Positions 41,581 to 56,919 of a stretch of 64,000 bases of DNA are shown in pieces. Location of the stretch: positions 1 to 64,000 of the forward strand of contig CAVUVW010000011.1 of NCBI GenBank assembly GCA_963745035.1, written 5' to 3'. The notes beneath the pieces are model-generated. The model had not been told where the DNA came from and did no database searches. It saw nothing but the letters and a program-made list of their open reading frames with translations. Numbering within the stretch: the first letter of the stretch is position 1; each line of letters starts with the position of its first letter. A program made the translations under genes and the position numbers. The stretch is from an uncultured delta proteobacterium. Its GTDB lineage: Bacteria > Desulfobacterota > Binatia > UBA9968.

Positions 41581-42667
41581 TCATTCTCCCAACAGTTTCT
41601 TCAATCTGGCCACCACCTCGGGCGGCTGCGCAATTACTTCTTTAGCCAATGCGGAGAGCTGTTCACCACTGATGGGATCGACGGGCCAGCCGCGCTTCTT
41701 TGCATCGGCCAGGAGATCGGGATCTTTGAGCGTCTTATCCCAAGCGTCGCGAAGGATCTTGATTCGATCGGCGGGCATGTTCGGCGGCGCGGTCCACGGC
41801 CGCCCAAACTCATTGGACGCGGTGATCAACGTGACCAAGCGGCGATCGGCGTCGCTCGCCTTGTAGCGATCCAATAGCTCATGAAAAGTAGGCGTATCCG
41901 GCAACAAGTGATCCCGCTTGCGGCCGGTTTGCACGAGTGGGCGGGTGAATCCCTTTTTATACCAGGAGATGTGCGGCTCGCGGCCAAAAAACGCCGCGAT
42001 GGTGATCAGCCGGCACTGCAACTCGCCGCGTTCGAGCGCGACGTCGATGTCGCCGGCGCCTTGATAGCCGGCGATGATGGTGGATTTGGCGCCGAGCACG
42101 TCATCCAAGAGCTTGGGAATGTGATAGGTGATCGAAGCGGTACCCGTGGAGCCGCATTTTGGCGACTCGCCGCCCTTGCGCATATCGTCGATGGATTTAT
42201 ACGGACTGTCGCCGCGCATAATGAACAGCAGCTCGGTCGGTTCCGGCGTACCGATCCAATTGAACTTCGCCCAATCGAACTGGACTTCTTTGCGGCCGAT
42301 CAGTTGATCCATGTAGATGGCCGAATTGAGTGAGCCCAGAGTGAGGCCGTCCGGCTTGGCGACATTGTACACATAGTTGGCCGCAATCACCGAACCCGCC
42401 CCCGGCATGTTTTGCACCGTGACGCTCGGATTGCCGGGGATGTGTTTTCCCAAATAGGTTGCGATGTGCCGCGTCCAGAGATCGTAAAGATCGCCGGCTT
42501 GGCCGCCGCGGATGATTCTTACCGATTTCCCTTGGAAGAAATTGTCCTGGGCATGGGCGGGACTGCTCCACGCAGCATAGAGCAAAGCGCAGGGCGAGAA
42601 GCCTCATCCATTTTGGATTTTCGATTTTGGCTTTTAGATTGTCGGACCGAGAATTCGAAGATCGCAT
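41581..42667 (-). CDS. TctC/Bug family substrate-binding protein, frameshift in leader near 42590; start uncertain
   Basis: QNMPGAGS, KCGSTG, GYQG, RGELQC. Confidence 0.85.
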
Positions 42668-42731
42668 CCAGGTTCTCTCAAGCATGTTGTTTTACTGCTC
42701 ATCTGAAATCGGCAATCCAAAATCGAAAATG

Positions 42732-43718
42732 TCATTTGATGACTTTATCCGCTCTTTCCAGTCATCTTCTGCGGAATCGTCAGACCGATCTGCTTGGCGG
42801 TTTTGAGATTGACGAGAAACTCAAATTTCGTCGGCTGCTCCACAGGCATGTCGGCGGGCTTGGTGCCTTTCAAGATCTTGTCGACAAAGTCAGCGGCGCG
42901 CCGCCATAAGTCCGTATAGTCTCGGCGCGTAGCTCATCAAGCCGCCGGCCTCAACAAACTCACTCGTTGGGTACATCGCCGGCAACCGGTTCTTTGCCGC
43001 GAAGTCCAACACTTGGCGTTGCTGAGTAATGATAAGTCCACCTGATGCTCGTAATGAGCGCCTGGGCGCGTTCCCTTTTCGCTCGCGCAAATGCGCTCTC
43101 AAAATCGTCAAGGCTTCGCACCGGAAGCGATAGAAGTTTGACTCCCAACGCCTTGGCCGTAGCTTCCATCTCTGTGAGAGCCAGGTTTCCCCTCATGCCA
43201 CCCGATTGCCAGAGGAAGGCCACCCGGGCAACCTTGGGGAAGGCTTCCTTGAGCAGTTCCAACCGTTTGCCATCTAGATCCGGCGCCATGACGCTAAGTC
43301 CGGTGATATTCCCGCCTGGTCGTGCCAGGCTGGAGACAAGCCCAGTTCCTACTGGATCGGAATGGAGCGCGAATACGATGGGAATTGTCGGGCTCGCCTT
43401 CTGAGCAGCTAAAATAGCCTGGGGGACGGTGACGATCACGTCAACTTTGAGACCGACCAGTTCGGCTGCAAGGTCAGGCAGCCGTTCGAGTTTTCCTTCT
43501 GCATATCGGTACTCAATGACAATGTTTTTTCCTTCGACATAGCCAAGCTCGCGCAGCCGTTGGCGAAATGCTTCGACCCGGGCCGATTGAACGGACGCGG
43601 AGGACGCGAACAGAATTCCTATCCGGGGAATTCTCGCCGGCTGCTGCGCCTCGGCTGTCAACGCAACACAGAGCAGCATCGCTGCAACCAGGATGGGCAG
43701 CGCCACAGCGTTTTTCAT
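42732..43718 (-). CDS. ABC transporter substrate-binding protein (ABC_sub_bind type) with three indels; possible pseudogene
   Basis: LRELGYVEGKN, DPVGTGLVSSLARPGGNITG, GGLMSY, PTKFEF, RADKVIK. Confidence 0.8.
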
Positions 43719-43826
43719 CGCGCACCTCGTTTCGAGGGTTATCTATCACGGCGATCGAGCGAAAGAAAAGTGTGGTTTATAGCGGAAGGCGACGGATTTG
43801 GATTGCGGACAGCCGACTATTCTCAG

Positions 43827-44288
43827 CTAGGAGTTTGTTTGATTTCGGTCCTTGCGCTTCAACGCTTCGACGTCGGCTAAGTCTTGCGTCCTCGCCGATG
43901 CGAGTTTGTTCTTGATCAAGTGTTCTTTGGAGAGCACGGCCACCGGTTGATCGGCGAATTTCGAAATCATCCGCTCTGCCCAAGCTTCGTCGAACTGGAC
44001 GCCGTCGATCACGGTCAAGACATCGATGCGTATGGGTTCCACTCCGATCTGGAAGATGAGGCCGGGTGTCGAAAGGTCTTTCTCCGTAAGATCATGCAAC
44101 GGCGCGCCGAAGGCGCGTAGGGCTTCGATGACTCGTGTCGCGTTCTCAGGGGAAGGACGCACCCAAACGTCGAGGTCTTGGGTTGCGCGGACATGGCCGT
44201 GGGCGGCCAAGGCGTGCGCGCCGACCAAGAGAAATTCAACTTGTCGGCCGTTGAATTCTGCTAATAGATCTCTGAAGTCTTGGTTCAT
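43827..44288 (-). CDS. stand-alone nucleotidyltransferase-fold protein
   Basis: LVGAHALAAHG..RATQDLD..RIDVL..LIKNK..RTQDLADVE. Confidence 0.8.
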   Translation of the reverse strand: MNQDFRDLLAEFNGRQVEFLLVGAHALAAHGHVRATQDLDVWVRPSPENATRVIEALRAFGAPLHDLTEKDLSTPGLIFQIGVEPIRIDVLTVIDGVQFDEAWAERMISKFADQPVAVLSKEHLIKNKLASARTQDLADVEALKRKDRNQTNS

Positions 44289-44451
44289 GGGCTTGGTTCG
44301 GTTGCCAAGCGAGGCAGAGCAGGGTCAATTCCCAAACCGCGTTCATCCGCTCTTCGGGTGTAGCGTTGTCCCAATATTGCTGGTCGGGAACGGGGTCTCC
44401 GGGTCGGATAACGGAGCTAGTGATCTTCTTGCGTCCGGCTCGATGCTTCAT
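44236..44451 (-). CDS. small protein overlapping the nucleotidyltransferase (putative partner)
   Basis: YW..TPEER..AVWEL..PRLQR; 53-nt overlap. Confidence 0.6.
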   Translation of the reverse strand: MKHRAGRKKITSSVIRPGDPVPDQQYWDNATPEERMNAVWELTLLCLAWQPNQAHEPRLQRSISRIQRPTS

Positions 44452-44546
44452 ACAGTGACTTTATAGCACATTCCGGAGAACACCTCCGCTGATCGTTTTT
44501 ACTCCCGCTTCCTTCCGGGAACCAATCACGGAACACTGGCAATAAG

Positions 44547-45531
44547 TCATCGAATCACTTTATCCGCTCTTTCCATCACCTTCTGCGGAATCGTCAGACC
44601 GATCTGCTTAGCGGTTTTGAGATTGACGAGAAACTCAAATTTCGTCGGCTGCTCGACTGGAATGTCGGCTGGCTTGGTCCCTTTCAGGATCTTGTCGACA
44701 AAGTCAGCGGCGCGCCGGAATAAGTCCGTATTGTCTGGCCCGTAGCTCATCAAACCGCCGGCCTCAACAAACTCACTGTTTGGGTACATCGCCGGCAAGC
44801 GGTTCTTTACCGCGAAGTCCAACACTTGGCGTAGCTGAGTCACGATAAGTGCACCGGTGCTCGTAATGAGCGCCTGGGCGCCGTTCCCTTTTCGCTCGCG
44901 CGAATGCGCTCTCAAGATCGCCAAGGCTTCGCACCGGAAGCGATAGAAGTTTGATTCCCAACACCTTGGCCGCAGCCTCCATGTCTGTGAGTTCCAGGTT
45001 TCCCCTCATACCACCCGCTTGCCAGAGGAAGGCCACCCGGACAATTTTAGGGAAAGCTTCCTTGAGCAGTTCCAACCGTTTGCCATCTAGATCTGGCGCC
45101 ATCTGGCTAAGTCCGGTGATAGTCCCCCCTGGTTGCGCCAGGCTGGAAACGAGCCCACTTCCTACTGGATCGCTACTAGCGGCGAATACGATGGGAATCG
45201 TCGGGCTCGCCTTTTTAGCAGCTAAAACAGGCACGGCGCCGGTGGTGACGATGACGTCCACTTTGAGACGGACCAGTTCGGCTGCAAGGTCAGGCAGCCG
45301 TTCGCGTTTCCCTTCTGCATATCGGTACTCAATGACAATGTTTTTTCCTTCGACATAGCCATGCTCGCGCAGCCGTTGGCGAAATGCTTCGACCCGGGCC
45401 GAGTTGAGGGACGCGGAGCCCGAGATCAGAATTCCTATCCGGGGAATTCTCGCCGGCTGCTGAGCCTGAGCGAAAGGAGCAGTTATCAGCAAGACAGTTG
45501 TCAGTAACCAGAAAAGAGGTTTTGAACTCAT
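44547..45531 (-). CDS. ABC transporter substrate-binding protein (ABC_sub_bind type), frameshift near 44883
   Basis: Close paralogue of 42732-43718. Confidence 0.82.
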
Positions 45532-45811: not shown

Positions 45812-46735
45812 CTAGCGAAATGTCTCCTTGATGTAGCGATATGCTGCGATGGCAGCGGTGGCGCCGTCGCCGGCGGAAGTGATCGCCTGCGCGGCCGAGT
45901 CTTGGCGGATGTCGCCGACGGCGTACAAGCCGCCGCGCGCGGTTTTCATCCAGCCGTCGGTCGGCACATGTCCGGTGTCGCCGAGGCTTAAAATATTTTT
46001 AAACAACGCAGTATTCGGCTTCAAGCCGACATAAACGAATAAGCCCGCCAGCTCGATTTCAGATGTTTCACTAGTACCAAGGTTGCGCACCTGCACCCCG
46101 CTGAGTTTATCATCGCCCAAGACCTCTTCGACGGCGGTTCGATAGTGCGGCGCGATCTTCGGCTCGTTCAATACTCTGTCGAGATACGAACGATGGCCGG
46201 TAAAACTTGCTTCGCGCTGAAAAACTAAAACCGACTGCGCGAAATTGGCAAGTGTCAGCGCTTCCTGGAGCGCGGAGTCGCCGCCGCCGACCACGCCGAC
46301 GACCTGGCCGTCGTAGAGCGGGCCATCGCAGCTTGCGCAGTGGCTTACGCCTCGACCCATCAGTTTCTCTTCGCCTGGCACGCCGAGTTCTTTGAGCGCC
46401 GAACCCGTGGCGACGATGACGGCTTTGGCCACATGGGATTTTTCGTCGGTTGCAACCGACCAGAAACAATCTTTGGCTTCCAGCTTGAGGACCTCGGCGC
46501 GTTCAAACTCGGCTCCCTGGTCCGCCGCCTGGCGCTGAACTGTCGGACAAAGGTCATAACCGGCGATGCCATCCGGAAAACCGGGGAAATCCTCGATCTT
46601 CTCGATGCTGATGAGATGCCCGCCGGGAATATTCGATTCCAGGATCAGGGTGGAAAGGCCATGCCGGGCGGAGAACAACCCGGCAGTTAGTCCGGCGAGG
46701 CCGGAGCCGACGACGATTACATCATACTCGGACAT
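45812..46735 (-). CDS. trxB: thioredoxin-disulfide reductase-like flavoprotein
   Basis: GSGLAG, IVATG, GVSHCASCDG, GGGDSA, YAVGD. Confidence 0.85.
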   Translation of the reverse strand: MSEYDVIVVGSGLAGLTAGLFSARHGLSTLILESNIPGGHLISIEKIEDFPGFPDGIAGYDLCPTVQRQAADQGAEFERAEVLKLEAKDCFWSVATDEKSHVAKAVIVATGSALKELGVPGEEKLMGRGVSHCASCDGPLYDGQVVGVVGGGDSALQEALTLANFAQSVLVFQREASFTGHRSYLDRVLNEPKIAPHYRTAVEEVLGDDKLSGVQVRNLGTSETSEIELAGLFVYVGLKPNTALFKNILSLGDTGHVPTDGWMKTARGGLYAVGDIRQDSAAQAITSAGDGATAAIAAYRYIKETFR

Positions 46736-46792
46736 ATTTAAATTCTTTGGTTCAAGCCGTTCAAAAAGTTCAAATCGTTGAAGCCCCCTCCT

Positions 46793-48097
46793 GTTCAAGC
46801 CGGGGATCATTTACGTTTTGAACCGGGCGCATGGTTTACAGTTTTTTAGAGTTAGTTCCGTGCCAGGTTTTGCGCTGGCATAATCTTTTTTGCATGTTGA
46901 TCGAGAATACCCAGCAGATGAAAACTATAACGGACTTCCCACTGCTCGGGTCCGACCTGCTTCAGTCCAACCGGCTCGTGTGCCAGGACTTCAGAGACAT
47001 AAAGGAGATCGCCGTGCCACTTGATCTCGCCGTTGTGTCGCACTCGTCTAACGGTCATGCCCGGACTGTATTGTACGGGCGGGAGTTTGTCGGGATAGCG
47101 CCGTGGGGAGCTAAGATAAACACTGCCCGGGGTCTTTCGTCCCAAGGCCTCATGGGAACGCTGGCCGTTATACTGCTTTACGAAAAGATCAAATTCTCGC
47201 TGTTGTCGTCTGTAGGTTGGCTGGGGCGCAACATCGTATTTAAGGGTTCGATGCATCCGTTCATGGCGCCCGTTCTGGCTTGGCTTACCCGGCTTGATCC
47301 GTTCAGGACGGATGCCAAGCTGGATCCACCACTTCGACAACTCGCTGACACCGCCCACACAGAGCGAGGCAAACGGTGCTCCGTTGTCGGTACGAATGGC
47401 CCGGGCAGTCCGTATTGTCGAAAGGCTCTTTCAAACCACGGCCGAACCACCCGATAGCTGTGCTGCCCCAAGGCTTGGCACATCAACAGATAACGAGAGA
47501 AATTGTCGGTCAACGTAAGCGGGTAACAGCGCTGACCATTCCCCAAGAGAAAGTCTCCCTTGAAGTCCGCACTCCAGATCTGATTCGGTCCATGGCAGTC
47601 GCTAAACGGTTCACTGTACGGTGCCACGTGGCGCCGACGCACACGGCGGTTGACCAGCCCTGCACGCTTGAGGATCGCACCGGCTGTAGAGTCCGCAGGC
47701 CAGGTCAACTTAGGTTTTTTCTCACCCAAATAATCCAAAACCTTTTTCGGACCCCAGCTCGGATGGCTAAGCTTGATGGCAATAATCATCTCGCGGATTT
47801 CCTCAGGGGTCTCATTGCGATGACGGTGCGCCGCGCGCGAGCGCTCCTCGAGCGCCTCAACTCCACCGTCTTGGTAGCGCTTAATCCATTTGTCAGCCGT
47901 GGGACGGCTAATTCCATAGGCTCTGCACAATTCAATCTTACTGTATTCTTTACTCAGCCAGTCAGCGATAAATTTAACTCGTTGATCCATGGCACTGGTC
48001 TGTTCCCAAGGCATTGGCAAGCTCCTCCTTGCCTCTGCCTCTTAAACTGTAAACCATGTGCCCGGTTTGTTTTGTAAATGATGCTACCGGTTTGTAC
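46793..48097 (-). mobile_element. IS481-family element, copy 3 (~1305 bp); transposase 46852-48020 with 1-nt deletion near 47404
   Basis: Both terminal repeats present; perfect CCTCCT duplication at 46787-46792 and 48098-48103. Confidence 0.92.
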
Positions 48098-48220
48098 CCT
48101 CCTTCATCCTCCCCCGCGTCGCGGGGGAGGACAAGAGAGCCTGCCCCGGACGTGATCCGGGGTGGGGGTTTGAACGGAGCGTAGCGGTTGAACGGCTTGA
48201 ACGTTTTGAACGAGCTATAA

Positions 48221-49882
48221 TTATCTCCACTCATCGACCGAAACGGTTTTCTGATAACTGCATCCCATGATGCGCCAGTAGCCATTGGTTTCGCCGCCGA
48301 CGACCACGACGTGAATCTCGTCGGGCTTGAACATCTTGACCATCTCGTCCGGTGCGGCTTTCAGCTTGGAGGCGTAGGGCTCTTCGCCGAAGGTCGCGCG
48401 CGGGTAGATGTAATTTTGAATCAACTGGTAGTCCCAGTATTCGCCGGCCGGCATCAATGCGTTTTCATAAATCCACTGGATAAGTTTTTCCTTGGTGTCG
48501 AAGCCGCCGCGGTCGATGTACTGGCGCGCCGCGATGGGATCGAGCAAAAACGTCGGCGCGCTGTGCGCGTCCATGCCGCGCAGCATGTTGCGCACGTGCT
48601 CGCGCCAGTACTTCTCGCGCACGCCGAGGGTAAACGCCGTCGAGCGGCAGCCGGTGAATATGCTCACCGTGCTGTCGGTCGGCTTGAATCCATGCTGCGT
48701 GTGGAACGGCGTCCACGGGCTGCGTTCTTCATTCTCGGCGAATGTGACCGTGCCGTAGGCATAGCCGTTGCCCTGGGAGCCCATATAGCTGTCGCCTGGG
48801 ATCGAGCCGCCCTGGAGATTTTGCGACAGTAAACCGTAGGCGCGCCCGATGGTCGCGTTGGCATGATTGTACGGCGCCATGGCGCCGGTGCCGGAGTTCA
48901 TGGCGATCTCGTTTCGGATCGGGCCGTTGACGACGACCATTGCCGCCATGGAGCTGGTCGTGCTGCCGCGCGCGCTCACGCCGCTGGCCGCGAGAGCGAG
49001 AATGACCGGAAAATATTCCGGGCGGGCGCCCGCCATCACCGCGTTGACCGCGACCTGCTCGACGGTAAATTCCCAGTGCTGGCGAAACTGGTTCGAGCGA
49101 ATATGTCCGGCGATTTCGCCCGGCTTGTGGCTCGTGTGCGAGAGCATTTCCGCTACGCGCTTCTCCGTGGGCAGCACGATCGGCAGTTTATCGGTCCAGT
49201 TATTGTCGAGGAACAACCGCTGCAGGTTCTCGTCCGTGTCGGCCTCGACGAACCGCGGCGTTGTGCGCTCGAATTTGGTTTCTCTGATCCGATCTCCCTC
49301 GGCCGGGCGGGTGAGACCTTCGATGACTTCCTGCATCACCGGCCGGCCGCTGATCGGACTTTTGCCGTCGACGTAGGCGCGCAGCTGCGCCGCGGTCTTG
49401 CCCATCACCGGCTGGGGAACGAACGTGTAGCGCGCTTCGGGCATGCCGTGCATGCGCGTCACCGACTGCACGGCCTTCTCGAAGACGTTGGTATGGATAG
49501 CAACGGTGGGAACACCGTATTTACTATCGAGAGCGATTGCATGCACGGCGACCGCCGGCGCGCAGGTGCTTCAATGGCCGACACCGATAATCGCGCCGTC
49601 GCCGTTGGCCTTGATCATCTCCCACGTTTTCGGATCGTCCTTGGTGTAGACGCTCGACATTTCGACGAGCTTGGTTTTGACCGAAGGCATGTGCTCGCCG
49701 AACCAGTCTTGCACCTGGCGCAGAAAAAGGCCGGAATCATCGAAGCGCGGATCGACCAAGTAGATGGTCTTGCCGTCGAGGCCGTCGAGCCGCGGCGCCA
49801 TCGGCTTCGGGGTCACTTTGGGCGCATATCCAACGGGATTGAGCGCGGAGATCTTGTCTAACCCATTGTTACTATCAGCCAT
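48221..49882 (-). CDS. UGSC-family thioredoxin-like (seleno)protein fusion, 553 aa, in-frame UGA read as Sec (GH-U-STC)
   Basis: The two track ORFs are in one frame, separated only by TGA at 49571-49573; UxxC motif; downstream hairpin. Confidence 0.8.
49542..49564 (-). promoter_or_regulatory. candidate bacterial SECIS hairpin
   Basis: TGCG-cgc-CGGC[GGTC]GCCG-TGCA, loop starts with G 17 nt after the UGA. Confidence 0.55.
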
Positions 49883-50057
49883 GTCGTGTCCTCCCCTGTA
49901 TTTGTGATCAATCGCGCGGCCGCTACAAAGAAAAGGTTTGTCGGCTGCGAGCTTTACGCTATGCGAAGTTCCGCACGTTCGTCAAGAAGACCGGCTGTTG
50001 GAAGATGAAACGGTCGGGATTGAGAGCGCCGTTGGAGGGCGGGGAATGAGAGAGCAC

Positions 50058-50348
50058 TCACCTGACTTGATGCAGATTAAAATGCCCGCCGTCGCTTTTT
50101 TGAGTTTGATAACGCGACGTCATTTCTCTCATGGCGTCGTGGGTCGGCGTGCCGCGGTGTTGGGTATGCGCTTCCACGCTGTCCCATTCGATCATCAAGA
50201 TCACCCGGCTGGGGTCTTCGATACTGGTAAAGAATTTGACGCCGTGAGCGCCGGCGTAGTCGGCTTTCTTCAGAAAATCGCCGAAAACCTGGATGTATTC
50301 ATCGCGTTTTTCCGGTGCCACATGCTGAATTAAGATTTCGTGGGTCAT
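50058..50348 (-). CDS. antibiotic biosynthesis monooxygenase (ABM) domain protein
   Basis: IEDPSRVILMIEWDSVEAH. Confidence 0.75.
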   Translation of the reverse strand: MTHEILIQHVAPEKRDEYIQVFGDFLKKADYAGAHGVKFFTSIEDPSRVILMIEWDSVEAHTQHRGTPTHDAMREMTSRYQTQKSDGGHFNLHQVR

Positions 50349-50423
50349 TGTTCCCCCTTCGCGTCATGGATTGTGAAATCGGGGTTGGTCGGCGCTAGTC
50401 AATAACGAGTGCGACTCTTTGCC

Positions 50424-50813
50424 TCAATTGATCGACCCGCTCGAACTGCTAAAGGTGAAACTCGGCTGCGTGCCGCCTGGCTTGGCGGCAGTAATCGTAA
50501 AGCTGTTCGGCGTCACAATGTTGAGAGTCAACGTGACGCCGCTGGTTGCGTGAAAGCCAAACCCCTGAAGTTCTTCGATGGTGGCGGGATAGACCGATCG
50601 CTTGGTGAAGTAACTTTCGACGGTCACCGCTGCGTTTCTGAGATCGGACTTCAATTGCGCGTCGACCGCGCGGCTGCGATAACTGATGAACTGCGGAATT
50701 GCAATCACGGCCAAGATGCCGATGATTGCAATGATGATGAGAATTTCCACTAGCGTAAAGCCACTCGTTGGTATGAAGCGCCGCAGTGCTTTGCGTTCCC
50801 GTTGATTGATCAC
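50424..50813 (-). CDS. type IV pilin-like prepilin
   Basis: G/FTLVEILIIIAIIGILAVIAIPQF cleavage-methylation motif; GGAGG RBS. Confidence 0.88.
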   Translation of the reverse strand: MINQRERKALRRFIPTSGFTLVEILIIIAIIGILAVIAIPQFISYRSRAVDAQLKSDLRNAAVTVESYFTKRSVYPATIEELQGFGFHATSGVTLTLNIVTPNSFTITAAKPGGTQPSFTFSSSSGSIN

Positions 50814-51133
50814 GCTGTCGTTCCTCCCGCCTATAATTAAATGCCGTTCGTTGTCTGACTGTTTCTTGATTCAACATCACGACTCTCTTTGCGGGTCATG
50901 TGGATTTAAAGACCGCGGTGCACTTTTGTCAAGAAATTTTTATCGACGCGCGGGTCCGTCCGACCCGGCTGGTGGGTAGCGTCAAGAGTTGTGTGTAAAG
51001 TTTAGGGGTTGCAGAAGCCAATTTTGATTGAGGTGATTGTTCTTGACGTTTCGTTTCGATCTGACCTATCTTTTCAAGCCGCAACGAGCTTGGATCGGTT
51101 TCTCGCAACTTACGTTCGATACGAGGAGGCGAT

Positions 51134-52165
51134 ATGAAACGGATTACACTGTGGCTTTTGCCCTTCCTGTTTTGCGCCGGCCAGGTTGCGGCGCAGACTC
51201 CTTACTACCAAGGCAAGACAGTCAGAGTCGTTGTCGGTTACCCGACGGGGAGTGCGCACGACCTGTGGGGCCGCCTGATTGCGCCGCAATTGACCAAACA
51301 TCTTCCCGGCAATCCCGCCACCGTGGTCCAGAACATGCCCGGCGCCGGGTCGATGACAGCTACTAACTACGTTTATGGGGTAAGCAAGCCCGACGGCTTG
51401 ACTCTCGGCATCAACAACGCGGCGCTCTATTTCGAGCAGCTCTTGAAAAAGAAAGAAGTTCAATACGACTGGTCCAAGTTTACCTGGGTGGGCAGCACGA
51501 CACCGACGAGTCCGCTTTTGTATATGTGGGCGAATGCTCCCTACAAAACGATTCATGACGTGCGCAGTGCGACCGTTCCGCCCAAGTGCGGGGCAACGGG
51601 AACGGGGAACACGGGTTACTATCTGCCGCGATTGCTCGAGGAGGCGATCGGCGCGAAGTTTCAAATTGTCACCGGCTATCAAGGTGGCGCTGACATCGAA
51701 ATCGCCGTCGAACGAGGTGAAGTACAGTGCCGCGCATTCACGATTCAGGTTTTTTACGGGCGTGAGCCGTTTCACACCTGGCGCAGCAAGAACCTGGTGC
51801 GCGTGTTGGTGTTCGCGGGTAAGAGGCGCGATCCTCGCATACCCGATACGCCGCTGCTCAGCGAATTGATGGATCAATACAAGACTTCGGATCTGAACCG
51901 CCGTCTCGTTACCGTGATGCTCGGCTCGGGCGAATTCGGCGCCGCCCCGATGTTCGCCGCCCCGGGAACGCCACCGGAGGTCACCAAGCTTCTCCGCGCG
52001 GCATATGCGAAGGCGCTTACAAGCCCCGAGCTGATTGCCGATGCCAAAAAGCAGGGTCTGGAACCGGAGCTCATTCACGGCGACGAGGTCGAAGCGCTTG
52101 CGAAGGAAGTCTTGAACCAGCCGGCCGAAGTTGTTGCGGCGATGAAAAAAGTGATGGGAGAGTGA
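51134..52165 (+). CDS. TctC/Bug family substrate-binding protein
   Basis: QNMPGAGS, KCGATG, GYQGG, RGEVQCR. Confidence 0.9.
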   Translation: MKRITLWLLPFLFCAGQVAAQTPYYQGKTVRVVVGYPTGSAHDLWGRLIAPQLTKHLPGNPATVVQNMPGAGSMTATNYVYGVSKPDGLTLGINNAALYFEQLLKKKEVQYDWSKFTWVGSTTPTSPLLYMWANAPYKTIHDVRSATVPPKCGATGTGNTGYYLPRLLEEAIGAKFQIVTGYQGGADIEIAVERGEVQCRAFTIQVFYGREPFHTWRSKNLVRVLVFAGKRRDPRIPDTPLLSELMDQYKTSDLNRRLVTVMLGSGEFGAAPMFAAPGTPPEVTKLLRAAYAKALTSPELIADAKKQGLEPELIHGDEVEALAKEVLNQPAEVVAAMKKVMGE

Positions 52166-53323: not shown

Positions 53324-54343
53324 ATGACGGTGATTGATGCGGATGCGCATGTGATCGAGAGCGAATCGGCGTGGGACTACATGCTCGAATCCGAGCGGCA
53401 GTATCGTCCGCGGATTGTCGCCGCGGCGAGCGGGGATGCGGCGATTGATTTTTGGCACATCGACGGAAGGTTGATGCCGCGGACGAATGTGGAAAAGAAA
53501 TTGCCCGAAGCGGCTCGCGACATGAGCGACCTGAGCATCCGGATCAAGCACATGGACGAGCTCAACATCGACATGCAGGTGATCTATCCGACCATTTTTA
53601 TTTTTCCCACAGCGCGCCGGCCCGAGGTGGATCTCGCGATCTGCCGCAGTTACAACCGCTGGATGGCTGACATTGTTGCGAAAGCGCCGGAACGATTTCG
53701 CTGGGTGGTGGTTCCGCCGCTGCTCAACATGGACCGAGTCGCTGAGGAGTTGAGGTTTGGGAAAGAGCACGGCGCGTGCGGCGTGTACTTGCGCGGATTG
53801 GAGGCTGACCGCCGATTGAGCGATTCGTACTTCTATCCTTTATATGATGAGGCCAGCCGGCTCGATCTGCCGATCTGCGTTCACTCGGCCAACGGCAGCA
53901 TCGAATCGCATGATTTCTTTCTCGATGAGCCGGGCTTTTGCAAGTTCAAGCTCGCGGTCGTCGGCGCCTTTCATTCGCTGGTGAACGACGGTATTCCCGA
54001 ACGATTTCCCCGTTTGCGCATCGGTATTATCGAAGTCAGCGCCCAGTGGATTCCCTATGCGATCCATGATCTGGCGCGACGCCATACGCGCCGCGGTAAG
54101 AAGCTGAGCGACCAATTGCTCAAGGATAAACGGGTGTACGTCACGTGCCAGACCGACGACGATCTCGATTACATTCTTGGGTACGCCGGCGAAGATAATC
54201 TCGTGATCGGGACGGACTATGGCCACTCCGATAACGCAAGCGAGATCGAGGCGCTGCGCAAGCTCAGAACCGAGGGCCGATTGCCGGGTCGCGTGATCGA
54301 TAAGATTCTCGACGACAATCCGCGGGCGCTCTACGCGCTGTAG
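53324..54343 (+). CDS. amidohydrolase family 2 protein (decarboxylase/hydratase-like)
   Basis: IDADAH, YNRWMAD, PICVH, GTDYGH. Confidence 0.88.
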   Translation: MTVIDADAHVIESESAWDYMLESERQYRPRIVAAASGDAAIDFWHIDGRLMPRTNVEKKLPEAARDMSDLSIRIKHMDELNIDMQVIYPTIFIFPTARRPEVDLAICRSYNRWMADIVAKAPERFRWVVVPPLLNMDRVAEELRFGKEHGACGVYLRGLEADRRLSDSYFYPLYDEASRLDLPICVHSANGSIESHDFFLDEPGFCKFKLAVVGAFHSLVNDGIPERFPRLRIGIIEVSAQWIPYAIHDLARRHTRRGKKLSDQLLKDKRVYVTCQTDDDLDYILGYAGEDNLVIGTDYGHSDNASEIEALRKLRTEGRLPGRVIDKILDDNPRALYAL

Positions 54344-54471
54344 CAGACTGCTGAAAAAGCCTCATATGCTTCGTTGCGCTCAATCGCCTCGCGTCAACGT
54401 ACTGCCGATGTACGCCTCCGCTCGTCGATTCATCGCGCGCCTTGCCTCTGAGATCTTTTTGAGCAGTCTGC
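54343..54471. mobile_element. 129-bp MITE with 17-bp terminal inverted repeats
   Basis: GCAGACTGCTGAAAAAG / CTTTTTGAGCAGTCTGC (16/17). Confidence 0.7.
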
Positions 54472-54532
54472 AAGGAAAGGTTTGTCGGTAGACCAAAGAT
54501 GCAACAGCATTTCCGAATTTGGGGGTTGTAGC

Positions 54533-55570
54533 ATGTTGACCATCGATGCGGATGCGCATGTCATCGAGTGCGAGAAGACTTGGGATTATTTGGAGGGTGC
54601 CGACAAACGCTACCGGCCGGTGCCGATCGCTGTGGACATGCCTACAGGCAAGACGCAGAATTTTTGGATCATCGGCGGGCGGCTGATCGGCGGGCGCGAC
54701 AACATCGGCCAGGACACTTCGAAAGAGTCGCGCGAGATGGCCAATATCGATTCGCGCCTGAAACACATGGACGAGATCGGCACCGGCGTGCAGGTGCTTT
54801 ATCCAACGCTCTTTCTTCGCCCTGTGACCGACAATCCGCCCATCGAGCTGGCGCTTTGTCGTTCCTACAATCGCTGGATGGCGGACATCTGGTCCAAGGA
54901 CAAAAAACGTTTGCGCTGGGCGGTGCAGCTGCCGCTTTTGACCATGGACAAAGCGCTCGACGAGCTTCGCTGGTCGCACGGCAACGGAGCGTGCGCGGTA
55001 TTCATGCGCGGCATCGAGACCCATCACGTTTTGCACGATCCATATTTTTTTCCGCTCTACGAAGAGGCCAGCCGACTTAATATGCCGATCGGCATTCACT
55101 CGGGCATCGGCAATTTCACAGTCAACGAAATGTTGGGCGGTGAACCGTTCCGGGTGGCCAAGCTGATGGTGATCGGCGGCTTTCATTCCATGATTTTGAA
55201 CGGCATTCCGGAAAGATTTCCCAAGCTGCGCATCGGCGCCATCGAAGTGGCTGCGCAGTGGGTGCCGTATATCGTGCACGATCTCAATCTACGGTTCCCC
55301 AAGCTTGCCGGTAAGGAGGCGCGGCCGGACGTGCTGAGCGGCAGCAATCAGTTATTTGCGGCCTGTCAGACCGACGACGATCTTCCTTACGTGCTCAAGT
55401 ACGCGGGCGAGAATAGTCTCATGATCGGCTCGGATTACGGCCACGCGGACAACGCGAGCGAGTTGCTGGCTCTGGCGAAACTAAAAGAGAACGGCGAGAT
55501 CGATCCGGCAGTGATCGACAAGATTCTTTATTACAATCCGGCGAAGTTCTACGGGCTGGATCAGGATTAG
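54533..55570 (+). CDS. amidohydrolase family 2 protein (paralogue of previous)
   Basis: IDADAH, YNRWMAD, PIGIH, GSDYGH. Confidence 0.88.
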   Translation: MLTIDADAHVIECEKTWDYLEGADKRYRPVPIAVDMPTGKTQNFWIIGGRLIGGRDNIGQDTSKESREMANIDSRLKHMDEIGTGVQVLYPTLFLRPVTDNPPIELALCRSYNRWMADIWSKDKKRLRWAVQLPLLTMDKALDELRWSHGNGACAVFMRGIETHHVLHDPYFFPLYEEASRLNMPIGIHSGIGNFTVNEMLGGEPFRVAKLMVIGGFHSMILNGIPERFPKLRIGAIEVAAQWVPYIVHDLNLRFPKLAGKEARPDVLSGSNQLFAACQTDDDLPYVLKYAGENSLMIGSDYGHADNASELLALAKLKENGEIDPAVIDKILYYNPAKFYGLDQD

Positions 55571-55750
55571 AAAAAGTGTTCGCGAACGTGGTTCGTTTCG
55601 CTAGATCAGGCAATGAAAGTTGAGCGGGGTGATGGCCTAGCCTTTCCCCTTTGACGGGGAAAGGTTGGATAGGGGTGCCGTGAGCAAATGCAAGATCACC
55701 CCTTCCTTACCCTTCCCCGTCGAGGGGAAGGAATCAGGTCGGGCTAGGGC

Positions 55751-56919
55751 ATGAGTAACCGAGAGAAAGCGAATGAGCTGAGGCCTTTGATCTATTGCTG
55801 ACCGGCGGCACGGTTCTCAATCCAGCGACCGGGCTCAACGCAAAATTGGACGTCGGCGTGACCGGGGATCGAGTCACGGCGATTCAATCCAATATTCCAC
55901 GGGCCAACGCCAATAAGACTGTGGACGTCAGCGGCTGCTACGTCACGCCGGGGCTGATCGATTTTCACGTGCACAGCTATTGGGGCGTGAATCCTTACGG
56001 CTGCAATCTCGATTCCCTCTGTCTCGCGACCGGCGTGACTACCACGATGGATGCGGGCTCGGCGGGGCCGGTGAACTTTCTCGGCTTTCGCAAGCTGGTC
56101 TATGAGCAATCCAAGGCCCGCATGCTCGGTTTCGTCGCGCTGGCGCAGCATGGCGTGTTGAACACGCCGGGGGAATTGCTCAATCTCGGCTTTGCTGATT
56201 CGGATGGCGCCGCTGAAACGGTCGGCAACAACCGTGACATCGGCATCGGCATCAAGCTCCGGCTGCACAAAAAATCCATCGGCGACAACAGCCGCGAAGC
56301 TTTGCGCCTGGCGATCAAAGCAGGTGAGGCGACAAAGACGCCGATCATGGTGCATGTCGGCGACACGGCCATAGGCATGGACGAGATCGCCGATACTTTA
56401 CGCCCTGGCGACATCATCACGCATTGCTACACGCCGCAGCGGCCGTCGATCATCGATGATAAGGGCAAGCTCCTGCCGCTGGTGCGGAAAGCCAAGGAGC
56501 GCGGCGTGATCTTCGATGTCGGCCATGCGGGGGGGCACTTCGATTTCAATCTCGTCGAGCGTGCCATCGGTGAAGGGCTGGTGCCCGATATCATCAGCTC
56601 GGATTTGCACAGCCGGCTCGCGCAACCGGGCTTCGGCGTGGTCGGCGACTTGCCTACGACGTTGACGAAATTTCTACCTTTGGGGTTGAGCCTCGAGCAG
56701 ATCATTGCCAATTGTACAATCAACCCGGCCCGCGCCATCGGATGGCAGGATCGGATCGGCAGCCTGGAAGTCGGCCGCGAGGCCGACATTGCGGTACTGC
56801 AGGTTCTCGACGATCCCGTCACCCTGCGCGATTCGGTGGGCGCCGAGAAATTGCACAGGCAGCGCATCGCGGCGAAGTGGACAGTGCGTGCCGGGGAATT
56901 ATTTCAGGGCCGAGGCTAA
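55751..56919 (+). CDS. amidohydrolase/deacetylase family metallohydrolase (dihydroorotase-like), probable indel near 55785
   Basis: PGLIDFHVH, DAGSAG, IMVH, ITHC, FDVGH, ISSDLH. Confidence 0.88.

Follow-up and report, generated by a model that had tools for sequence, protein, structure and literature searches.

The UGSC Family and the Locus

The UGSC family of selenoproteins was described in 2008 as abundant in environmental DNA, and the accessible part of that paper gives 255 selenocysteine (Sec) sequences of the family in the GOS data (PMC2398784). A 'UGSC/Unknown_1' fusion was printed in Figure S1A of supplement 1 to the same paper, and Unknown_1 also occurs by itself, as a separate protein, in bacteria and methanogens (PMC2398784). 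Reviews of 2022 and 2026 list the family, in their accessible parts, without a function, and a search of the literature on UGSC selenoproteins that took in few subscription journals found no functional study, the relevant papers being selenoproteome surveys and reviews. The present analysis concerns a UGSC-family gene on the minus strand of a 64,000-nucleotide (nt) stretch, referred to here as the window: positions 1 to 64,000 of contig CAVUVW010000011.1 (GenBank assembly GCA_963745035.1), from an uncultured delta proteobacterium placed by GTDB in the Binatia (UBA9968).

Two open reading frames (ORFs), 49571-49882 (103 amino acids (aa), ATG start) and 48221-49546 (441 aa, GTG start), share one minus-strand frame. 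Reading through from 49882 to 48221 gave 553 residues with a single internal stop. The sole in-frame TGA is codon 104, in the context ...DGAIIGVGH-U-STCAPAVAVHAIAL... Judged from sequence comparison, 48221-49882 is very probably one gene, encoding a 553-residue UGSC-family selenoprotein with Sec at codon 104. Because that codon is UGA, gene callers split the gene or shorten its product to 441 aa. The features of the gene were as follows:

48221..49882, minus strand: predicted complete selenoprotein gene, 553 codons plus a TAA stop (48221-48223); its frame is open except for one internal TGA, and orthologues 72-93% identical over residues 1-553 with one TGA each
49890..49894, minus strand: GGAGG, a putative Shine-Dalgarno-like site 7 nt upstream of the ATG (49880-49882), read from the sequence
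49571..49573, minus strand: UGA codon 104, read as Sec, the U of the U-S-T-C motif; among 78 motif-bearing loci, 73 carry TGA and five TGC
49538..49564, minus strand: bacterial Sec insertion sequence (bSECIS) hairpin, by its fold, third-position entropy, loop conservation and one compensatory change; GGUC apical loop at 49550-49553
49298..49882, minus strand: N-terminal UGSC domain, residues 1-195, with U104-x-x-C107, by PF24696, an AlphaFold2 model and flavodoxin/receiver-like structural neighbours
48224..49297, minus strand: C-terminal 'Unknown_1' domain, residues 196-553, by the motif of GOS Figure S1A; it has neither a Pfam family nor a clear match among solved structures

The protein passed the Pfam model of the UGSC family (PF24696) with 85.3 bits against a cut-off of 25 over residues 14-171, and the N-terminal domain alone scored 88.7 bits. 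It shares the Sec/Cys-x-x-Cys position of the family. The locus reads GVGH-U-STCAP, however, in place of the name-giving letters U-G-S-C, and the protein represents a distinct subfamily with the motif H-U-S-T-C-A-P.

The domain order was that of the published UGSC/Unknown_1 fusion (PMC2398784). Compared by eye with the printed alignment, the Unknown_1 block AVNGVMAGCRPEYMP...NGP of Figure S1A resembled AVNAVMAGARPEYFP...VVNGP here, and the AVNxVMAG.xPEYxP ... NGP block was present after the UGSC domain. Two differences were seen. The linker was longer, the block starting near residue 278 versus 167-181 in the GOS reads, and the Cys of MAGC highlighted in the Unknown_1 part of Figure S1A corresponded to Ala286 in this protein and in most of its close relatives.

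These results agreed with most of what a first-pass annotation, made from the letters of the window, had proposed: two ORFs in a common frame forming a 553-aa protein around an in-frame UGA, a link to UGSC-type selenoproteins, the motif HUSTC instead of UGSC, and a fusion of the Sec domain to a larger WTDKLPIVLPT / VAVNAVMAG domain. Its description of the selenoprotein as hidden needed correction. The gene belongs to a known selenoprotein family, the fusion was published in 2008, and homologues are already named by NCBI; the kind of gene is not new.

Homologues in Public Databases

A word-indexed search returned 6481 proteins at E <=0.001 among 8000 scored candidates, and an exhaustive search of cluster representatives returned 4526 at the same threshold. 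Matches 74-91% identical to the query were 410-441 aa long, covered about 75-80% of it and started just after the TGA. Matches of 546-569 aa were 65-71% identical. The NCBI name 'UGSC family (seleno)protein' was found on homologues 65-86% identical, among both short and full-length records. Close homologues deposited as 410-441-aa proteins included P0002-P0014, P0022, P0023 and others, and came from JGI, ENA and NCBI. Public annotation systematically shortens the Sec forms of the H-U-S-T-C subfamily, records that bear the name 'UGSC family (seleno)protein' included.

UGA as a Selenocysteine Codon

Profile searches of the window's genome (7.4 Mb, 28 contigs) found selA (PF03841, 523 bits), a SelB wing domain (76 bits) and selD (TIGR00476, 385 bits, itself with one in-frame TGA). 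A tRNA-SeC with anticodon tca was located at C17:371273-371367. The selA, selB and selD genes were contiguous on the same contig (C17:315468-319742), about 50 kb from the tRNA gene. By its in-frame TGA, the SelD of this genome is a selenoprotein itself.

A scan of one genome per species gave 506 stretches encoding relatives of the protein, and the best 80 were retained for locus counts. A motif search located the U column in 78 of the 80 loci (L055 and L092 fell outside the pattern). The codon at this column was TGA in 73 loci and TGC in five, and the H-U-S-T-C-A-P motif, with Sec or Cys at U, was invariant in all 78. The carriers were labelled Binatia, 'delta proteobacterium', Chloroflexota, Rokubacteria/Methylomirabilota, Dormibacterota, and others. 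The five TGC forms came from Thiobacillus, Rhodospirillales, Terripilifer, Xanthobacteraceae, and Hyphomicrobiales, and among named strains at least Terripilifer ovatus (L086) has a natural Cys form.

In 41 related genomes, exactly one TGA was present in each of the 21 matches covering residue 104 at >=72% identity (20 of 20 when the unpublished G005 was left out). Because all 21 orthologous matches keep one TGA, a sequencing error or recent nonsense mutation is excluded. The motif column read GVGHCSTCAP in 16 of 16 full-length database homologues aligned; since tools print U as C, the codon counts in DNA, and not protein alignments, are the firm evidence. Of the refuting conditions named with the first-pass annotation (no Sec machinery in the genome, no homologues with Cys or a conserved TGA at this column, or reads showing TGC or TGT), none was borne out, the last being answered by the orthologous matches.

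The Selenocysteine Insertion Hairpin

Positions 49538-49564 folded at -13.8 kcal/mol into a 10-pair stem (4+2+4 pairs, interrupted twice by a single base) that ends in a GGUC tetraloop (49550-49553). The spacing from UGA to loop was 17 nt. The bSECIS consensus given in the Figure 2 legend of a 2026 review (PMC13188914) comprises a loop of 3-9 nt, an upper stem of 4-16 bp, a G in the first two loop positions, a distance of 16-37 nt from the UGA and a minimum free energy of <= -7.5 kcal/mol. The hairpin agreed with the constraints quoted in that legend in its 4-nt loop, its stem of four G-C/C-G pairs followed by a bulge and six further pairs, its spacing and its energy. Over a 91-nt stretch around the hairpin the z-score was -2.47, with 4 of 200 shuffles as stable.

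Comparison among relatives provided the main evidence for the hairpin. Codons +4 to +9, which read A-P-A-V-A-V/A and are all four-fold degenerate, supply the 18 nt of the upper stem and loop. Among 74 distinct Sec sequences the third-position entropy of these codons was 0-0.10 bit; at other invariant four-fold codons it was about 1-1.9 bit, and about 1.1-1.7 bit at invariant Gly, Val and Pro codons nearby. The GGTC loop was found in all 49 distinct Sec 45-mers. The fdhF SECIS of E. coli likewise has a GGUC apical loop. One compensatory change was seen, a G-C pair replaced by C-G in L078. The five Cys forms varied at the same synonymous sites and kept 7.4 of 10 pairs, versus 9.3 in the Sec forms. 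The synonymous sites of the hairpin codons are frozen in Sec forms, which points to selection on the hairpin. The folded hairpin is the one, with a G-starting loop 17 nt past the UGA, that had been noticed in the window's sequence.

Predicted Structure

AlphaFold2, run on a 34-sequence alignment, gave a model with a mean predicted local distance difference test score (pLDDT) of 92.4 and a predicted template modeling score (pTM) of 0.91. In this model the N-terminal domain (residues 34-195) contained five helix-flanked strands in strict beta-alpha alternation. U104 was placed between strand 96-102 and helix 107-121, and residues 96-121 had a pLDDT of at least 92. The 50 best structural neighbors of the domain were flavodoxin, CheY-receiver or Rossmann-like (Z 8.2-11.1). 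The top neighbor was 8s7v_H (Z 11.1, root-mean-square deviation 4.9, 138 aligned residues), and no single neighbor stood out. The N-terminal domain thus appears flavodoxin/CheY-like and not visibly thioredoxin-like, a call that rests on prediction and does not exclude a fold outside the neighbor list. The accessible part of the 2008 paper suggested a thioredoxin-like fold for the UGSC domain (PMC2398784), whereas the model shows a parallel alpha/beta domain, and the label 'thioredoxin-like' used in the first-pass annotation was not supported by it.

The C-terminal domain folded alone with a pLDDT of 91.8. Foldseek gave a TM score of only about 0.15 for the whole protein against the PDB, and nothing at E <=0.001 for the C-terminal domain against solved structures. 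Class I fumarate hydratases, the weak top rows for this domain (probability 0.23-0.44, TM 0.21-0.25), were not accepted as relatives. In a VIA-align comparison with 48,161 chains, Z reached 5.6 at most (75 residues aligned, all within model residues 216-346), with OmpA-like, FakA and fumarate hydratase sub-domains in the top rows. As VIA-align hardly reached the first half of the domain, a new fold is not claimed. A PDB sequence-profile search with an alignment of 34 diverse full-length relatives (A2) gave chance-level matches only (E 0.36), Pfam placed no family on the C-terminal domain of 46 family members, and the ESM Atlas returned unnamed clusters only. Ten residues were invariant down to 29% identity: P16, P238, M283, G285, G320, P321, R347, G363, E383, and D550.

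The Thioredoxin-Reductase-Like Neighbor

All ORFs of the 80 loci were clustered, and clusters within the selenoprotein gene itself were set aside. The only widely shared neighbor of the selenoprotein gene was a thioredoxin-reductase (TrxR)-like flavoprotein, found in 35 of the 80 loci (36 by tblastn). In 31 loci the TrxR-like gene lay on the same strand, carried CASC or CATC, and started -103 to +182 nt from the end of the selenoprotein gene. Sixty-eight loci had 1100 nt or more of sequence downstream, and 34 of these contained the TrxR-like gene. In the window, this gene and the element next to it were:

45815..46735, minus strand: TrxR-like flavoprotein, 307 aa from an internal ATG of the listed ORF 45812-46810, with a CASC motif; Pyr_redox_2 131.6 bits, and TIGR01292
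46793..48096, minus strand: insertion sequence, with helix-turn-helix and rve integrase in overlapping frames 47178-48020 and 46852-47358; by Pfam, inverted repeat and comparison with L015

The window's TrxR-like protein aligned end to end with TIGR01292 at 312.2 bits, against a cut-off of 343.45, with the CASC present, and is best described as a TrxR paralogue. Compared with the thioredoxin system, the downstream flavoprotein resembles TrxR over its full length and has a CxxC (CASC), while its presumed acceptor here has no predicted thioredoxin fold. The natural interpretation is that such a flavoprotein would feed electrons from NAD(P)H to an acceptor of the dithiol or selenol-thiol type.

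The insertion sequence had 39-nt terminal inverted repeats (46806-46844 and 48044-48082) that were 82% complementary. The closest relative of the locus, L015 (96% nucleotide identity), was collinear with the window up to 48097 and again from 46792, and lacked the approximately 1.3-kb stretch between the selenoprotein and TrxR-like genes. The transposase was split over two frames and is either frameshifted or programmed. Just past the stop codon of the selenoprotein gene, a perfect 12-bp inverted repeat (TCCTCCCCCGCG / CGCGGGGGAGGA) was found at 48107-48131, followed by a run of short GTTCAA-containing repeats at 48150-48215; both were conserved in L015. The 48107-48131 repeat is not a classical terminator, as no T-tract follows it.

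Other neighbors were considered as partners and set aside as lineage-specific: an upstream ABM monooxygenase-like gene (4 of 80 loci), a pilin-like gene (6), a TctC receptor (22) and an SDR (16). The TctC and SDR neighbors were shared only within the Binatia lineage. Additionally, the window contained several periplasmic solute-binding-protein genes around the locus, two TctC-family and two ABC_sub_bind (41581-45531 and 51134-52165), and amidohydrolase genes at 53324-56919.

Further UGSC and GRDB-Type Loci in the Genome

Three further UGSC genes were found in the window's genome, all with the motif D/A-U-G-S-C-T-S-W:

C13:572855-574429, C13:712709-713897, and C13:568835-570551: further UGSC genes of the window's genome, each with an in-frame TGA

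One of the three was followed by a TAA and then by a separate Unknown_1 gene; one was fused to Unknown_1, with an apparently frameshifted C-terminal domain; and one stood alone, with a downstream Unknown_1 gene that also seemed frameshifted. The window copy had the lowest PF24696 score of the genome's four UGSC copies (81 versus 120-154 bits). That a single genome carries four UGSC-type Sec genes is particular to this case. Of 24 stand-alone UGSC matches in relatives, all of them containing a TGA, roughly 20 had an Unknown_1 match within approximately 1.1 kb on the same strand. To judge from these sequences, Unknown_1 accompanies UGSC domains elsewhere too, fused or as the next gene.

GrdB and PrdB (PF07355) have a UxxC selenoprotein motif in common with the protein, as listed in a table of the 2008 paper (PMC2398784). 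Kinship with them was not supported, as PF07355 gave no match to the protein at E up to 10, and a whole-genome scan with this model at the same threshold matched none of the four UGSC loci. Glycine reductase relies on the thioredoxin system. The genome scan did reveal four PF07355 loci, which had no TGA, scored 278-418 bits, and in two cases were split over frames:

C13:702486-703523, C11:122680-123735, C27:167171-168227, and C15:302335-303377: GRDB-family loci of the window's genome, PF07355

These four are probably Cys-form glycine/proline-reductase-B-like proteins in a Binatia-type genome.

Proposed Role and Mechanism

SelB and tRNA-Sec can recode the UGA, aided by the SECIS hairpin in the coding region, which gives the U104-S-T-C107 pair. 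The protein is likely an NAD(P)H/TrxR-fed selenol-thiol reductase, in a relay of which we infer every step. Electrons would pass from NAD(P)H to the FAD and CASC of the TrxR paralogue and on to the U104/C107 selenenylsulfide. U104/C107 would cycle between selenol/thiol and selenenylsulfide, and would hand electrons on to a substrate that the C-terminal domain holds. In that domain, the invariant R347, E383, and D550 are the best candidates for residues of a site of binding or catalysis. Such a mechanism, a UxxC relay fed by the TrxR-like flavoprotein with the substrate held by the C-terminal domain, has about an even chance of being correct.

Alternative Explanations

Several observations weigh against the reading of this gene as a UGSC-family selenoprotein acting in a TrxR-fed relay. 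The protein scored 60.9 bits against the NCBIfam equivalog NF041046, below its cut-off of 125, and U104-S-T-C107 keeps the UxxC spacing of the UGSC family with different middle letters. The full-length database forms are a sample biased against Sec forms, which gene callers have shortened. For DNA so rich in G+C the energy of the hairpin was unexceptional (z -0.74; 42 of 200 shuffled sequences folded equally well); as folding energy alone is no better than chance, the function of the hairpin is argued from comparison. Rfam, scanned over 46000-52000 with E 1 as the limit, returned no match, a result that is uninformative, there being no matching model. In the window, the insertion sequence separates the selenoprotein gene from its usual TrxR-like partner, an uncoupling that is particular to this window. 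Half of the loci with sufficient flank (34 of 68), mainly Rokubacteria/Methylomirabilota, had no TrxR-like gene that was found. About half of the 34 relatives in alignment A2 lacked one or both redox residues, and five of the A2 relatives that are 29-38% identical (P0153, P0158, P0194, P0202, and P0220) combined a hydrophobic, signal-peptide-like start with the absence of a Cys/Sec pair. Redox-residue-free relatives, for example those reading GHMDTLGP or APSSSTTA, keep the C-terminal motifs. The lack of one or both residues in about half of these relatives means that the C-terminal domain can sometimes do without a redox partner, and the two-domain architecture seems to occur also in apparently exported, non-redox forms.

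The last of these points, together with the loci in which the TrxR-like neighbor was not found, would suit a real selenoprotein in which the UxxC domain, attached to a non-redox enzyme, serves as a switch or sensor of redox state or scavenges peroxides or disulfides. The predicted receiver/flavodoxin-type fold of the N-terminal domain, which is common in regulatory domains, fits as well. This alternative is rather unlikely. Sec comes at a high cost and is as a rule retained where it takes part in redox catalysis, H-U-S-T-C-A-P is invariant in the 78 loci, and in 31 a dedicated TrxR paralogue directly adjoins the gene. According to the accessible parts of the reviews of 2022 and 2026, most selenoproteins of prokaryotes are redox proteins. 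A true stop at the TGA, leaving two genes of 103 and 441 aa or one gene broken by a nonsense mutation or sequencing error, would account for the public calls of 410-441 aa that begin just after the TGA and could use the GTG 24 nt downstream of it. The most frequent Sec 45-mer (18 of 74 sequences), however, has GCG in place of that GTG, and the TGA is found across several phyla in 73 of 78 loci with the protein conserved on both sides. Moreover, the Cys-codon forms are continuous, the full Sec machinery is encoded in the genome, and the predicted strand-loop-helix at 96-121 spans the TGA in the AlphaFold2 model with high local confidence; the reading as a true stop is already contradicted and is highly improbable. 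Reassignment of UGA to another amino acid (e.g., Trp or Gly) has nothing specific in its favor, as any in-frame UGA would leave the frame open under such a code without being evidence for it. The column alternates with Cys codons only, tRNA-SeC (tca) and selA/selB/selD are present, and a consensus-fitting SECIS hairpin, apparently under selection, lies at the published distance, so that a reassigned code is the most improbable of the explanations weighed here.

Implications

For the locus itself, the annotation is corrected from two 'genes' to one selenoprotein. A wider proposal is more tentative and has somewhat less than an even chance of holding: UGSC, Unknown_1 and the TrxR-like flavoprotein would make up a self-contained NAD(P)H-driven selenoenzyme system, with a catalytic domain of about 350 residues whose fold would be new among solved structures and whose reduction would be new to enzyme families. 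A biochemical test would be straightforward, since the redox domain is tied to one orphan domain, the TrxR paralogue is often adjacent, and Cys forms exist. In environmental DNA, the UGSC family ranks among the most common selenoprotein families of prokaryotes. If the proposal is true, soil and freshwater bacteria (Binatia, Chloroflexota, and Rokubacteria) would carry such a selenoenzyme system in abundance.

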